A DNA stretch of 64,000 nucleotides from Escherichia coli (GTDB lineage Bacteria; Pseudomonadota; Gammaproteobacteria; Enterobacterales; Enterobacteriaceae): the NCBI RefSeq assembly GCF_003334405.1, contig NZ_QOWM01000005.1, one strand, 5' to 3'. Both the position numbers and the translations under genes were made by a program. Shown here piece by piece: positions 28,796-32,014 of this stretch (position 1 is its first letter; each line of letters begins with the position of its first letter). The notes beneath the pieces are model-generated. The model searched no databases. It saw only the letters and a list, made by a program, of their open reading frames with translations, and was not told the origin of the DNA.

Positions 28796-29833
28796 TTAAC
28801 GCTTATCCGCCACCAGTTTGAGCGCGTGTTCCAGCACATTAATGTCTGCACCCGCTTTATGGGCATTTTCACTTAAATAACGCCGCCACTGCCGCGCGCC
28901 AGGAATACCCTGGAACAAGCCCAACATATGCCGGGTAATATGGCCGAGATACGTCCCCTGGCTGAGTTCACGCTCAATGTACGGATACATGGCGCGCACT
29001 ACCGCCACCGGATCGGCATCGGTATCCGAGGAACCAAAGATCTCCCGGTCTACCGCCGCCAGAATACCCGGATTCTGATACGCCTCGCGCCCGACCATCA
29101 CGCCATCCATATGTTGCAGGTGTGCTTTGGCCTCTTCCAGCGACTTGATACCACCGTTAATCGACATTGTCAGATGCGGAAAGTCACGCTTCAGTTGATA
29201 CACACGCGGATAATCGAGCGGCGGGATTTCACGGTTTTCTTTCGGGCTTAACCCCGAAAGCCAGGCTTTACGTGCGTGGATGATGAACATCTCACACTCG
29301 CCTTTGCCGGAAACGGTATTGATGAAATCGCAGAGAAATTCATAGCTGTCCTGGTCGTCGATGCCAATACGCGTTTTCACCGTCACCGGAATCGACACCA
29401 CATCGCGCATCGCTTTCACGCAGTCGGCAACCAGCTGCGCATTACCCATCAGACACGCACCAAACATGCCGTTCTGCACCCGGTCAGACGGGCAGCCGAC
29501 ATTCAGGTTGATCTCATCATATCCGCGCGCTTCTGCCAGCTTTGCACACTGCGCCAGCGCCGCCGGATCGCTACCGCCCAGTTGCAACGCTACCGGATGT
29601 TCTTCTTCACTGTACGCCAGATAATCACCTTTACCGTGAATAATCGCCCCTGTGGTCACCATTTCGGTATACAGCAACGTATTGCGGGAAAGCAGACGCA
29701 AGAAATAGCGGCAATGTCTGTCCGTCCAGTCGAGCATTGGTGCAACGCTAAACCGACCACTCCAGTGAACGTCAGTTTTTTCAGGCATTGCGCTGGTTTG
29801 GTTGATTTTTTGCATTTCAGAATTACCGTGCAT
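28796..29833 (-). CDS. dusA: tRNA-dihydrouridine synthase A
   Basis: ORF track 28796..29839; ATG at 29833 (345 aa); FMN-binding TIM-barrel Dus family sequence. Confidence 0.9.
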
Positions 29834-30126
29834 TTTCAAATGTAGAGATTATTTTATCGATATATCATGGGGTTATGTTATTCAGCATCACTATTCAGGA
29901 GGCTCAATAGCGGGGTACTATACCATAACAACAGGAAGCGCCTGTCTCATTGCAAAAGAAAATTGAGATCCTCTCAAGGCATGAAGCTCTCACGAAGTGA
30001 TGGAAATAATCTTATTAGCCGTTAACTTTGTTAAGGCCAATGATAAACAATCCAGGTTCGACGATAAATAAAAAATCACACATTAAACTCTGGTGATATA
30101 TCTCCCTGCTAATAGCATTGATAGAG

Positions 30127-30160
30127 AAAAAAGAACCCAATAAATATTGGGTCCTTTTAT
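30127..30160. terminator. Terminator hairpin acccaat-aaat-attgggt flanked by A-run and T-run, downstream of yjbM
   Basis: Read in sequence 36 nt past yjbM stop; symmetric A/T flanks suggest bidirectional function. Confidence 0.65.
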
Positions 30161-30195
30161 ATAATGCCTTCCATACTATCGAAGAACTTCACATA

Positions 30196-30903
30196 TTATT
30201 TCTCCGATTTAACCCCGAACAAATCATAAATTAATTTAGAAGTGTCTGTAAGTATTTTAATCTCTTCCTTTGAGGTTGGGTCAAACGACTTCGCGAAGCT
30301 AATTAATTGTGGTGCAGCATCTCGCATTTTGCTTAAAATATCAGGATCGAGCGTTCCTTCATTCACCAGATGTGACATCTTATCCAGATAGCCATCAAAA
30401 TTCATTTCTCCCCCATCAGCCAGACGCTTCATCTCTCCCAGGTACTTCTTCATATCACGTTGAGATAATTTTTCAAACTGAGCTTTCAGGTAGCTCTCAT
30501 TATTTTCATTAATATACACTGTTTCTGATAAATCTGCGTAGGCACTAGAATATGAAAGTGAAATTAACAGCGAAGCAAATAATTTTAAGCTGTTGTCATC
30601 ATGTTCCTGGCAGGCATTAACAAACGTTAAAAAACCAGAACCTATTGCTTGAAAATGTATATTCGCTAAAGGTTCATTATCCTTAGATTCCTCATAAAAT
30701 AGCTGAACCGTGGAGGGAAGGTCATTCTTAGTTTCTACATCAAAAGTACATTGTTCAATGGGCATTGCATCTTTATTATCCCCAGGATTACATATACTAT
30801 TAATCGCGAAATGAAAAATAGCCCGGTCAACAACTGATGCAATAAAGTCACGATCGTTTAAATCCTCATCAGTGCAATCGTCAATATACTTATTGACCCA
30901 CAT
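30196..30903 (-). CDS. yjbM: Hypothetical protein YjbM, function unknown, low GC
   Basis: ORF track 30196..30936; ATG at 30903 gives 235 aa; acidic, no recognisable catalytic motif; AT-rich. Confidence 0.7.
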   Translation of the reverse strand: MWVNKYIDDCTDEDLNDRDFIASVVDRAIFHFAINSICNPGDNKDAMPIEQCTFDVETKNDLPSTVQLFYEESKDNEPLANIHFQAIGSGFLTFVNACQEHDDNSLKLFASLLISLSYSSAYADLSETVYINENNESYLKAQFEKLSQRDMKKYLGEMKRLADGGEMNFDGYLDKMSHLVNEGTLDPDILSKMRDAAPQLISFAKSFDPTSKEEIKILTDTSKLIYDLFGVKSEK

Positions 30904-30926
30904 TTTGAGATCATTTATTTGCACAA

Positions 30927-31181
30927 TTAAAAACACATTTTTTTACGTGCATGCCATAAATTATGCGTGATTCGTTGAATAAACAAATCTATTTTTGCAA
31001 TAATTATATCCCGATGACGCAGCGCTGCATAATCAATAGATTTACCATATATATTATTTAATTTACCTTTGATTGAACCTCTATTATCTAATTTATCTTT
31101 GATTGCATCTTCATTATCGAATTGATTTGAATTGAGTGTTTTATTAAAGTATCCAGTTGCACCGGGTATTATCTTCAACAT
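30927..31181 (-). CDS. yjbL: Hypothetical protein YjbL (84 aa), function unknown, low GC
   Basis: ORF 30927..31181; immediately upstream of and co-oriented with yjbM. Confidence 0.65.
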
Positions 31182-31498
31182 GATTCATCTACCTTTTTTG
31201 TCGTACCGTGTCCTCCTTATAATTCTTTTGCCATCTGGTCACTATCAAAAATCGCTCATAATTTCTGAACTACAGGTATGCGTTTAAACCCAGTTAAATA
31301 AATAGCGAGTTAACTTGAAGCAATTTATTTAAAAATGAATTATTAATTATTATCGTGTTGATAATGGTACGACAAGGCAACATAACACCTTACCTACAAA
31401 ACAGAAAATCAACATTACGGCAACAATAAGGGTTCTCGGTGTTTTTCCTGGAACATGGTAAAGTAAGGACATTCTTAACCCCCACTTTGAGGTGCCCG

Positions 31499-32014
31499 AT
31501 GGAAAAGACCACAACGCAGGAGTTATTAGCGCAGGCTGAAAAAATCTGCGCGCAGCGTAATGTGCGCCTGACCCCACAGCGCCTGGAAGTGTTGCGCCTG
31601 ATGAGTCTGCAGGATGGCGCTATCAGCGCTTATGATCTGCTTGATTTACTGCGCGAAGCTGAACCGCAAGCCAAGCCGCCAACGGTTTATCGCGCGCTGG
31701 ATTTTCTGCTTGAGCAAGGTTTTGTGCATAAGGTGGAATCCACCAACAGTTATGTGCTCTGTCATCTGTTCGATCAGCCCACCCATACGTCAGCCATGTT
31801 TATTTGCGATCGCTGCGGCGCAGTGAAAGAAGAGTGTGCAGAAGGCGTGGAAGACATTATGCATACGCTGGCGGCAAAAATGGGGTTTGCCCTGCGGCAT
31901 AATGTGATTGAAGCACATGGGCTCTGTGCGGCATGTGTAGAAGTGGAAGCGTGTCGTCATCCTGAACAGTGCCAGCATGATCACTCTGTGCAGGTGAAAA
32001 AGAAACCGCGTTAA
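31499..32014 (+). CDS. zur: Zinc uptake regulator (Fur family)
   Basis: ORF track 31439..32014; ATG at 31499 gives 171 aa; Fur-family HTH and CxxC metal sites. Confidence 0.93.
   Translation: MEKTTTQELLAQAEKICAQRNVRLTPQRLEVLRLMSLQDGAISAYDLLDLLREAEPQAKPPTVYRALDFLLEQGFVHKVESTNSYVLCHLFDQPTHTSAMFICDRCGAVKEECAEGVEDIMHTLAAKMGFALRHNVIEAHGLCAACVEVEACRHPEQCQHDHSVQVKKKPR

Follow-up and report, generated by a model that had tools for sequence, protein, structure and literature searches.

Two probable separate acquisitions and one frameshifted DUF2713 gene upstream of dusA in Escherichia coli

The AT-rich DNA between dusA and zur in Escherichia coli raises two questions: what it encodes, and how it came to lie next to a gene that is a known target of integrating elements. 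In the window analyzed here, the whole 64,000-nt stretch of E. coli DNA, a preliminary description had taken this interval for a cassette of two genes, yjbL and yjbM, at the dusA integration hotspot. We instead read the interval, with a probability of about 0.78, as two separate acquisitions and one dead gene. None of the findings constitutes a new kind of system. The coordinates of the features are collected in Table 1.

The ∼1.6 kb between dusA and zur had been described as AT-rich compared with the flanking genes, and the windowed GC content and the GC content at third codon positions (GC3) both agree. GC content is 0.29–0.39 over ∼29800–31450, compared with 0.52–0.58 in dusA and zur, and GC3 is 0.20 in yjbL and 0.33 in yjbM, compared with 0.53–0.62 in the neighboring genes. 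For reference, 1400-nt windows across the 64-kb stretch have a mean GC content of 0.505 (sd 0.053). Two pentapeptide-repeat islets also occur elsewhere within the 64-kb window.

Table 1. Features of the dusA-zur interval and the adjoining dusA 5′ end (positions in the window).
Feature	Position	Strand	Remarks
dusA att crossover core, ATGCTCGA	29730–29737	-	phage homology stops; CFT073/E. albertii dusA homology begins
Phage-type surrogate dusA 5′ end, fossil attR arm	29730–29836	-	DusA codons 1–35
Putative right half of native dusA promoter region, TGTTATGGTATAGTA	29916–29930	-	homologous to CFT073 GTTATGCTATAGTA
AT-rich insertion (∼1.41 kb) with single DUF2713 gene	29938–31349		GC 0.341; edges ± ∼20 nt
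Terminator-like hairpin and T run	30129–30158	-	13 pairs; inverted repeat; 38 nt past stop codon
DUF2713 gene, frameshifted here	30196–31181	-	fragments: yjbL 30927–31181, yjbM 30196–30903
A7 homopolymer with -1 nt frameshift	30938–30944	-	A8 in intact close alleles
Two tandem 30-nt repeats	31052–31111	-	10-aa unit (DAxKDKLDNx); repeat search
Putative left remnant of split native promoter region, TGTTATG TTGCCTTGTCGTA	31368–31387	-	aligns with HH97 and CFT073

The AT-rich block carries two co-oriented open reading frames, yjbL (84 aa) and yjbM (235 aa), which overlap in different frames. These frames lie where the preliminary description placed two genes, but the addition of one A to the A7 run fuses them into a single 328-aa ORF without a stop codon, and this is the sole lesion in the gene. 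The restored ORF is 96–99.7% identical to intact proteins of other E. coli, in which intact alleles of 318–340 aa occupy the same site (e.g., 334 aa in XH992 and 318 aa in ETEC4067). The A7 run reads CGTAAAAAAATG here, and the intact alleles P0023 and P0061 read CGTAAAAAAAATG at this position; additionally, identical DNA in other strains is annotated by NCBI PGAP as a single “frameshifted” DUF2713 pseudogene. As judged from these alignments, a change from A8 to A7 has split a single ∼330-aa gene into the halves yjbL and yjbM, and we consider this gene a probable pseudogene in the E. coli strain analyzed here. The terminator previously assigned to the gene pair corresponds to a terminator-like hairpin, identified by consensus match only, that is conserved across allele classes. 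The copy number of the 10-aa repeat varies by allele in the alignment, from 0–1 up to three copies.

The split allele is common, occurring in roughly 2000 of 5426 genomes. Since the run is a coding homopolymer in a hypervariable accessory gene, with both A7 and A8 present in the species, it could be a contingency (phase-variable) site at which lineages switch the gene between on and off states. The A run is apparently not switching, because its exact 96-nt context occurs with A7 in 866 genomes and with A8 in only one, and in an even sample of rows across the ranking nearly all have the A7 length. Furthermore, in E. coli with functional mismatch repair, a run of eight bases offers little length for efficient switching, and we regard phase variation as extremely improbable.

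It had also been suggested that the small protein and its larger partner form a toxin-antitoxin or immunity pair, which would make yjbL-yjbM an operon of two functional genes produced by gene fission. The two frames are open, co-oriented, and overlapping, like many coupled pairs, the split allele is frequent, and yjbL-yjbM appears in the literature as a young operon of two genes without a known function (PMC12218254). However, the split is a 1-nt homopolymer loss relative to intact close alleles, the supposed small partner is the N-terminal portion of the larger protein, and relatives encode one fused protein rather than a maintained gene pair. The split also cuts the conserved core of the family, because the best conserved motif (residues 60–76) lies in the “YjbL” half, and a Shine-Dalgarno-like sequence is absent before both candidate yjbM starts. 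No toxin-antitoxin, defense, or immunity family matches either half: neither fragment matches any family in PADLOC-DB 2.0 at E-values up to 1, the NCBIfam and toxin-antitoxin Pfam models do not match YjbL or YjbM, and a Pfam scan of YjbL returned nothing. Between two A7 alleles, dN/dS is 0.98 (i.e., ∼1), in a comparison that comprises only 17 differences and is almost without power. Taken together, these observations make a pair of functional genes highly improbable.

The frameshift might alternatively be bypassed by a -1 ribosomal slip (T AAA AAA) or by transcriptional slippage on A7, in which case the gene would be recoded or attenuated. Reading on from yjbL into yjbM indeed requires a -1 shift, and a slip would restore the exact 10-residue sequence of the intact alleles; the frameshift being the only lesion in the gene, and the wide distribution of the A7 allele, would also be consistent with bypass. 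However, T AAA AAA is not a canonical slippery heptamer, and the AT-rich surroundings show neither an evident Shine-Dalgarno-like stimulator upstream nor an evident structure downstream. Homologs are in frame with A8 or GA7, and thus the shift is not conserved. Efficient transcriptional slippage is known for runs of at least nine, and A7 is shorter than this. The dN/dS of ∼1 across the 17 differences between A7 alleles counts against bypass as well, and we judge it very unlikely. Even with one split gene, the strain might still produce the two fragments or a product of slippage.

YjbM matches the Pfam family DUF2713 (PF10897) over positions 1–235 of 235 (E = 1.7e-167). This model covers residues 94–328 of the full protein; its 235 positions were built on the K-12 fragment, and it leaves out the N-terminal motif in “YjbL,” which is the best conserved of the family. 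A family search of 5.8 billion sequences returned matches from E. coli proteins only, and an exhaustive HMMER search of 1.84 billion representatives added only ∼8 distant relatives. DUF2713 is absent from ∼19% of E. coli genomes, as well as from E. albertii and other Escherichia species, and in these collections the family is almost confined to E. coli. Among phage and plasmid records, no bona fide carrier of a DUF2713 gene was found, and the apparent “plasmid” matches were mislabelled chromosome pieces. The phage protein families phrog_29005 and phrog_28007 match YjbM and YjbL, respectively, near-perfectly, but are read as flanking chromosomal DNA that was included in prophage calls at dusA, because no phage record encodes a DUF2713 protein. 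In the literature searched, no paper on DUF2713 by name was found. The ∼330-aa protein lacks a signal peptide and membrane segments, and it is predicted to be soluble, acidic, mostly helical, and cytoplasmic. Sequence searches of the PDB with two profiles gave only E-values > 0.5, and two AlphaFold2 runs reached pLDDT values of 57 and 59, too low for fold assessment.

At the dusA edge of the interval, where no att-like feature had been seen, there is a fossil attR arm. This 107-nt segment is 84.1% identical to the attP arm of phage mEp460 (L088:3498-3604; blastn E = 1e-28), which adjoins the dusA-specific integrase of mEp460 itself. In tblastn searches, the dusA 5′ end has 71–74% amino acid identity to mEp460, 1720a-02, PhiR40_1, and phiSTEC1575-Stx2k, with several of the phage matches falling at record ends. 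The native DusA N-terminus in CFT073 and other Escherichia is MPAESHTVYPAYRFSI. Modern prophages recombine exactly at ATGCTCGA, where the homology of the scar ends. In strain YD786, the same dusA 5′ end runs to …CCAATGCTCGA at attL before phage DNA begins, and at attR the phage arm runs to …CCTATGCTCGA and continues into CTGGACGG; this strain also carries a displaced native dusA 5′ fragment. A live mEp460-type integrase is located beside dusA in 728 of 5426 E. coli genomes. We considered whether the MHGNSEM-type end could be ancestral and copied by phages from E. coli, which is disfavored because every outgroup Escherichia has a native-type end. That dusA-specific elements replace the dusA 5′ end is established (PMC4482086; PMC13136901), and by homology the dusA 5′ end in this genome is likewise shown to be of the phage-supplied replacement type.

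Upstream of this arm, TGTTATGGTATAGTA contains an extended -10-like motif (TGnTATAGT) that many genera share upstream of native dusA, visible there as an “LCYSSAP” read-through; for this region we infer a promoter role. Beyond the opposite edge of the block, the left remnant aligns with HH97 and with CFT073 ATTGCCTG(G/A)TCGCA. The AT-rich block interrupts this native dusA promoter DNA ∼200 bp upstream of the att core. The ∼80 nt from the -10-like motif to the phage arm have no significant match to phage or native sequence. Because mEp460 int, read as its reverse complement, begins ATGGCGTACTATAACATA, the sequence TATGGTATAGTAC was considered as a relic of the region around the integrase start codon, but it is not assignable to either phage or host, because the motif is a conserved native upstream element of dusA in many genera.

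The dusA-zur interval is short in 1052 of 5426 E. coli genomes (∼19%; e.g., CFT073 and Nissle), and the spacer measures 124–128 bp in CFT073, E. albertii, E. whittamii, and three more Escherichia lineages. Because CFT073-type strains and other Escherichia keep this ∼125-bp spacer, the AT-rich block is read as an insertion. Loss of the block in CFT073-type strains was rejected, since the short spacer is common to all outgroup Escherichia. In addition, two rare haplotypes, HH45 and HH97, have the phage scar and no AT-rich block. In strain HH45, both flanks are identical and 27 nt of native-like promoter sequence are present where the block would be. HH97 is a second empty haplotype with the same flanks and an uninterrupted native-like promoter sequence, of which 30 of 33 nt match CFT073 (a score reached in 0 of 500 shuffles). 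HH97 was rejected as a simple empty site, as HH45 placed the junction ∼20 nt further in. By these DNA comparisons, the block is of foreign origin and was inserted in only part of the species. A repeat search found no terminal repeats at the block edges, and no clear target duplication was found around it, the sole candidate being an ambiguous 7-bp TGTTATG. An Rfam scan gave nothing above gathering thresholds. In other strains, IS1, IS5, and IS200 insertions and IS1-associated loss occur at the locus, and the intact DUF2713 protein is dispensable and often lost.

A single acquisition could also be envisaged, in which the block is the last cargo of the same dusA element that left the scar, with internal deletions having removed the integrase and att sites. 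The block lies directly upstream of the surrogate end, which is the integrase-proximal position of such an element, and other genera with an MH-type dusA end carry unrelated cargo at the equivalent site, including an alcohol dehydrogenase in S. enterica arizonae, where the first 12 integrase codons are kept, and, in Leclercia, a higBA-like pair. A high AT content is also common in prophage cargo genes close to int, which would be consistent with this origin. However, both junctions of the block are native-type promoter DNA rather than phage DNA, and the scar-only haplotypes keep native sequence that the occupied alleles lack. The absence of an integrase noted earlier agrees with the ORF list and with a tblastn search of the mEp460 integrase against 29600–31520 (best E = 0.99), and no integrase remnant was found there. 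No further ATGCTNGA occurs on either strand in 29838–31520, leaving the single core in Table 1 and no attL-attR direct-repeat pair around the block. When the native dusA 5′ end of CFT073 was used in a blastn-short search for a displaced fragment, the only matches were chance words no longer than 9 nt. Additionally, no phage record encodes the DUF2713 protein, and in YD786 the block lies outside the resident dusA prophage. A decayed island is thus rather improbable. The earlier hotspot idea is borne out for the phage-derived dusA 5′ end, but not for the AT-rich block, which lies ∼200 bp upstream without att sites and interrupts the native promoter.

For the two separate acquisitions, we reconstruct the following history. 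A mEp460-like phage or island with a dusA-specific (Rci-like) tyrosine integrase once recombined at ATGCTCGA, in dusA codons 33–36, supplying its own replacement dusA 5′ end, as such elements do. The element was later lost, leaving the 107-nt surrogate end that now encodes DusA residues 1–35; modern phages continue to use the dusA core, swapping the 5′ end again. In the second layer, ∼1.41 kb of AT-rich DNA, comprising a single gene together with an upstream region and a terminator of its own, entered the native dusA promoter region between the -35-side and the extended -10-like motif. The insertion itself is shown; illegitimate recombination is the proposed mechanism, and the recipient was the ancestor of those E. 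coli lineages that are not of the CFT073/Nissle type. In the strain analyzed here, a slip from A8 to A7 has split the gene, leaving the N-terminal 84 aa as “YjbL” and the C-terminal 235 aa as “YjbM.” That the layers are independent, and in which order they arose, is drawn from the rare haplotypes HH45 and HH97, which in principle could be secondary.

The yjbL and yjbM genes of the reference E. coli genome are therefore best read as one pseudogene. Pfam DUF2713 describes a truncated protein, and so functional work needs an intact allele (the 328-aa A8 form or the 334-aa form of XH992). The N-terminus of the DusA used in E. coli K-12 biochemistry is phage-derived rather than native enterobacterial, and this end, along with the split promoter, matters for studies of dusA expression and for the reading of integration sites.

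The DUF2713 coding sequence is 69–79% identical between allele classes, compared with 94–97.5% for the flanks within the block and 98–99% for dusA and zur. Between classes, dS is 0.51–0.88 and dN is 0.23–0.39, compared with a dS of 0.05–0.085 and a dN of 0 for the dusA control. We take this synonymous divergence to be comparable to that between E. coli and Salmonella orthologs. The allele classes are thus much older than the DNA around them, a pattern suggestive of balancing or diversifying selection, and DUF2713 is a clean candidate for balancing selection, being E. coli-restricted with divergent alleles and near-identical flanks. By analogy, the pattern would be that of proteins facing an antagonist (host, phage, or competitor).

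Our best guess for the protein, reached by inference and doubtful, is that it may be type III-secreted and effector-like, or another interaction protein. Distant relatives and some alleles carry a WxxSE(K) motif; the W is invariant, and the K-12 clade reads WHARK, without the E. The N-terminal 20 residues are polar and conserved, and one distant relative adjoins a PipB2-like pentapeptide protein on a single, plasmid-like metagenomic contig. The effector idea draws on that one neighboring gene in one contig and on the partly conserved motif. It is unlikely that DUF2713 is a new secreted or injected interaction family, such as an ETT2/LEE substrate or a sensor in phage-host conflict. If it were, such a family would have been kept as ancient allele classes by balancing selection and hidden by the fragment-based K-12 annotation and the Pfam model.

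Elements with dusA-specific integrases, such as mEp460, have their core in the dusA 5′ end and bring a replacement for the promoter-proximal 5′ end (Farrugia et al. 2015, PMC4482086). The locus resembles them in that its dusA end is homologous to the mEp460 attP arm and this homology stops at the core of modern prophages. In contrast to these elements, it keeps the attR arm only, without integrase, attL, displaced 5′ fragment, or element genes, and its AT-rich block has no att sites at its edges and lies within native promoter DNA. Effectors with a WxxxE motif, and PipB2- and EspX-like pentapeptide effectors, are encoded in AT-rich backbone islets or on plasmids. DUF2713 resembles type III effectors in its AT-rich islet, polar N-terminus, and partial WxxSE(K), whereas in WxxxE effectors, which a type III system translocates, the motif is invariant and lies within a SopE-like helical fold, and the K-12 clade of DUF2713 does not keep it; the PDB profile searches and low-pLDDT models gave no sequence or fold match to any effector. 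In E. coli, the fliC, fimA, and O-antigen genes are under long-term balancing or diversifying selection with recombining flanks. These loci encode surface structures, whereas the DUF2713 protein is predicted to be cytoplasmic, yet DUF2713 is like them in having deep allele classes at one site, divergence confined to the coding sequence, and near-identical flanks.

The genes annotated as yjbL and yjbM are the two parts of one frameshifted gene of the DUF2713 family (Pfam PF10897), set in the E. coli gene order qorA-pspG-dusA-[yjbM-yjbL]-zur-yjbJ-dinF-lexA. The preliminary description correctly saw an AT-rich interval here: GC is 0.29-0.39 across about 29800-31450, against 0.52-0.58 in dusA and zur; the inserted block has a GC of 0.341 (1400-nt windows over the whole sequence: mean 0.505, sd 0.053), and GC3 is 0.20 in yjbL and 0.33 in yjbM, compared with 0.53-0.62 in adjacent genes. 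It also placed the two ORFs accurately, both on the minus strand here and accompanied by a terminator-like hairpin, but took them for separate genes. The yjbL stop codon overlaps, out of frame, the ORF containing yjbM, and a single "DUF2713 family protein" spans both ORFs in strains XH992 (334 aa) and ETEC4067 (318 aa). The sole frame-breaking difference in the locus alignment is one base in a run of A, which reads CGTAA-AAAAATG in the window strain. Adding one A to this run of seven (A7) gives a 328-aa ORF without a stop, with 96-99.7% identity to intact proteins from other E. coli, and P0023 and P0061, two close alleles that are intact, have eight (A8) at this site. The NCBI pipeline labels DNA matching the window at 100%, 99.7%, and 97.3% identity as one "frameshifted" pseudogene.

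Features of the dusA-zur interval and of two other AT-rich islets in the window
Feature	Position (nt)	Strand	Remark
AT-rich islet	8428-9720	+	430-aa pentapeptide-repeat protein
Phage-type dusA 5' end (scar)	29730-29836	-	
Codons between the two DusA Met	29786-29833		
Native dusA upstream motif	29916-29930		TATGCTATAGTA
AT-rich block	29938-31349		
Terminator-like hairpin	30158-30129		consensus-type match
DUF2713 gene	30196-31181	-	
yjbM	30196-30903	-	annotated fragment
yjbL	30927-31181	-	annotated fragment
yjbL stop codon	30927-30929	-	
A7 run	30938-30944		frameshift site
13-nt inverted repeat	31294-31332		TTAAATAAATAGC / GCAATTTATTTAA
AT-rich islet	39219-40547	-	442-aa pentapeptide-repeat protein

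The best-conserved motif of the family (residues 60-76) falls within "YjbL"; with the two ORFs being halves of one gene, the proposed small protein with a larger partner, of the toxin-antitoxin or immunity type, therefore does not hold, and neither half matches PADLOC, NCBIfam, or the toxin-antitoxin Pfam families. The PF10897 model has 235 positions, equal to residues 94-328 of the complete protein; it was built from the fragment that the frameshift creates in K-12 and leaves this motif out. Two PHROG families (phrog_29005 for YjbM, phrog_28007 for YjbL) match almost perfectly, yet the protein is encoded by no phage record, and they probably stem from prophage calls at dusA overrunning into the chromosomal flank. 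The two other AT-rich islets, with a GC of about 0.32-0.34, probably hold yjcF and yjbI, which we take to be backbone "EspX-like" loci.

Of 5426 complete E. coli genomes, 866 have A7 within an exact 96-nt context and only one has A8 there; about 2060 genomes have the local haplotype (identity at least 97.9%), and evenly sampled rows of its ranking nearly all have the A7 length. These counts argue against the A run acting as a fast on-off switch. Low-level bypass of the frameshift may occur, since a ribosome that slipped by -1 on the run would restore the intact sequence. Two frameshifted alleles have a dN/dS of 0.98, as would be expected of a pseudogene, in a comparison of 17 differences only. 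In other strains, IS1, IS5, or IS200 is inserted in the DUF2713 gene, or IS1 replaces the block. In several strains (H131-H136 and H138, e.g., Iso00270 and A30), dusA and zur are separated by an IS1 and stand too close together to leave room for the block, which suggests IS1-associated loss.

Both dusA and zur are present in all 5426 genomes and are close together in 1052, examples being CFT073, Nissle 1917, LF82, ATCC 25922, and ABU 83972, all of phylogroup B2. The CFT073 spacer is about 125 bp, and a scan of one genome per species with Zur as the query gave spacers of 124-128 bp in E. albertii, E. whittamii, and three further Escherichia lineages, so that the short state is ancestral in the genus. 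The interval in other genera (one genome per species) is 678-3484 bp of unrelated DNA with normal GC, and encodes no DUF2713 relative. Two rare haplotypes, HH97 and HH45, have the scar and lack the block. HH97 reads ATTGCCTGGTCGCATATTTGTTATGGTATAGTA, with a 30/33 nt match to the CFT073 promoter region, a score reached in 0 of 500 shuffles. In HH45, both flanks are exactly as in occupied alleles (those with the block), and the block is replaced by 27 nt, TGTCACATTATCTTGATACGCATATTC, homologous to native TGTCACATTGCCTGATCGCATATTC. Part of this native sequence is missing from occupied alleles, so that both haplotypes are more easily explained as states before the insertion than as deletions. The block breaks into native promoter DNA, some 200 bp upstream of the att core, and an extended -10-like TGnTATAGT remains on its dusA side. 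No terminal repeats or clear target duplication were found at the block, so we infer insertion by illegitimate recombination. The inverted repeat in the conserved region upstream of the DUF2713 gene could be a regulator binding site.

Compared with CFT073 and E. albertii, the window dusA is near-identical only from ...CCAATGCTCGACTGGACGGA onwards (codons APMLDWTD) and is unrelated or strongly diverged upstream; its DusA N-terminus differs from the native type (e.g., MPAESHTVYPAYRFSI) of all outgroup Escherichia and most genera. A tblastn search of this N-terminus against 50,697 phage records matched unannotated DNA in mEp460, 1720a-02, PhiR40_1, PhiR55_1, and phiSTEC1575-Stx2k, over residues 1-35 only and, in several phages, at the very record ends. 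In mEp460, named among the phages encoding a dusA-associated integrase (PMC4482086), the match lies 88 nt from the start of an Rci-like integrase gene, and the DNA match to the scar is 84.1% over 107 nt, ending at ATGCTCGA. The K-12 DusA N-terminus is phage-derived. A full mEp460-type integrase and arm lie beside dusA in 728 of the 5426 genomes. The order in strain YD786 is zur, an intact 338-aa DUF2713 gene, a 105-nt dusA 5' pseudogene fragment, a 42-kb prophage, the integrase gene, and dusA. The displaced fragment equals the window dusA 5' end up to ...CCAATGCTCGA and continues into the phage arm TAGGATGTACCG, as in the mEp460 attP, while the new dusA begins with the phage's own surrogate end, joined between ...CCTATGCTCGA and CTGGACGG. 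These junctions are direct evidence of where the crossover lies, and the dusA 5' end found in the window is thus an exchangeable phage-type module, and hence a fossil attR.

The earlier proposal of a decayed, foreign acquisition at the dusA integrase hotspot, with neither integrase nor att-like feature, thus holds in part. The spacer comparison bears out an insertion in part of the species, the integrase is indeed absent, and the hotspot was right in an unexpected way, the dusA 5' end being a phage scar with a fossil attR, but the AT-rich block seems not to belong to the element behind that scar. A single event, in which the block came as cargo of a lost dusA element, is improbable: 29838-31520 shows no similarity to an integrase and holds neither a second att core nor a displaced piece of native dusA, and HH45 and HH97 keep native sequence that occupied alleles partly miss.

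In Escherichia sp. MOD1-EC7003, an mEp460-like arm adjoins the native dusA promoter and zur (L008:1245-1580), an attL on a native-type background. The MH-type dusA end also occurs in S. enterica arizonae, diarizonae, and houtenae, and the arizonae locus retains the first 12 integrase codons. Other genera have such element-derived ends with differing adjacent cargo (L027, L029, L034, L037, L054, L070, L077); the cargo is a zinc alcohol dehydrogenase in S. enterica arizonae and a HigB/HigA-like pair in Leclercia. The first integrase codons of mEp460, ATGGCGTACTATAACATA (L088:3380-3412), are an opposite-strand near copy of the conserved native dusA upstream motif, which resembles an extended -10; in this phage, a surrogate promoter for dusA seems to overlap the start of int. 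DusA is annotated with 345 aa and begins MHGNSEM, but a second in-frame Met (MPEKTD) lies 16 codons further in and lines up with MPAESH, the native start, which makes the annotated start uncertain for the window strain.

A word-indexed search of 5.8 billion proteins (single sequence and profile) returned only E. coli DUF2713 proteins and one "Klebsiella" fragment. Exhaustive HMMER against 1.84 billion representatives added about eight distant relatives (300-430 aa, E 1e-14 to 1e-4) from metagenomes and one "E. coli" assembly contig, in IS-rich or plasmid-like surroundings that include the following: ISL3 and mutator transposases; hok/gef and an AIDA autotransporter; KfrA and a 311-aa PipB2-like pentapeptide protein. 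The core common to all is residues 55-255, with invariant K63, D65, W76, L108, and F123 and the family motif AKLDxFxxITxG(L/S)WxxSEK. The protein is acidic (pI about 5) and lacks membrane segments. Predictions make it largely helical, with a disordered stretch of 50 residues at the N-terminus that includes a 10-aa repeat whose copy number varies. Structure predictions were of poor quality, and fold searches were uninformative.

Three deep allele classes occupy the same site, and the XH992-like and ETEC4067-like classes have 45 and 50% amino acid identity, respectively, to the K-12-like class. Between classes, identity is 69-79% in the CDS, 94-97.5% in non-coding DNA of the block, and 98-99% in dusA and zur; dS is 0.51-0.88 and dN 0.23-0.39 (ratio 0.37-0.59), against 0.05-0.085 and 0 for dusA of the same strains. 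Synonymous sites have thus diverged about tenfold more than in adjacent dusA, which selection on amino acids alone cannot explain and which implies allele lineages much older than their flanks. Balancing selection with recombining flanks, or import from unsampled donors, would account for this deep polymorphism.

As an accessory AT-rich gene, it is hypervariable and often inactivated; its N-terminal residues are conserved, and one distant relative has an effector-like neighbour (the PipB2-like protein). This profile is compatible, tentatively, with a secreted effector-like or conflict-related protein. The feature is real and ordinary in kind: an orphan gene, now a pseudogene, within a small insertion of foreign DNA beside a fossil phage att site. 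The result corrects a Pfam model (DUF2713) and the reference annotation of yjbL and yjbM, which the literature covered here mentions solely as a young operon of two genes with unknown function (PMC12218254). That elements of the dusA-associated integrase type provide the dusA 5' end is established (PMC4482086) and restated in a later paper (PMC13136901).
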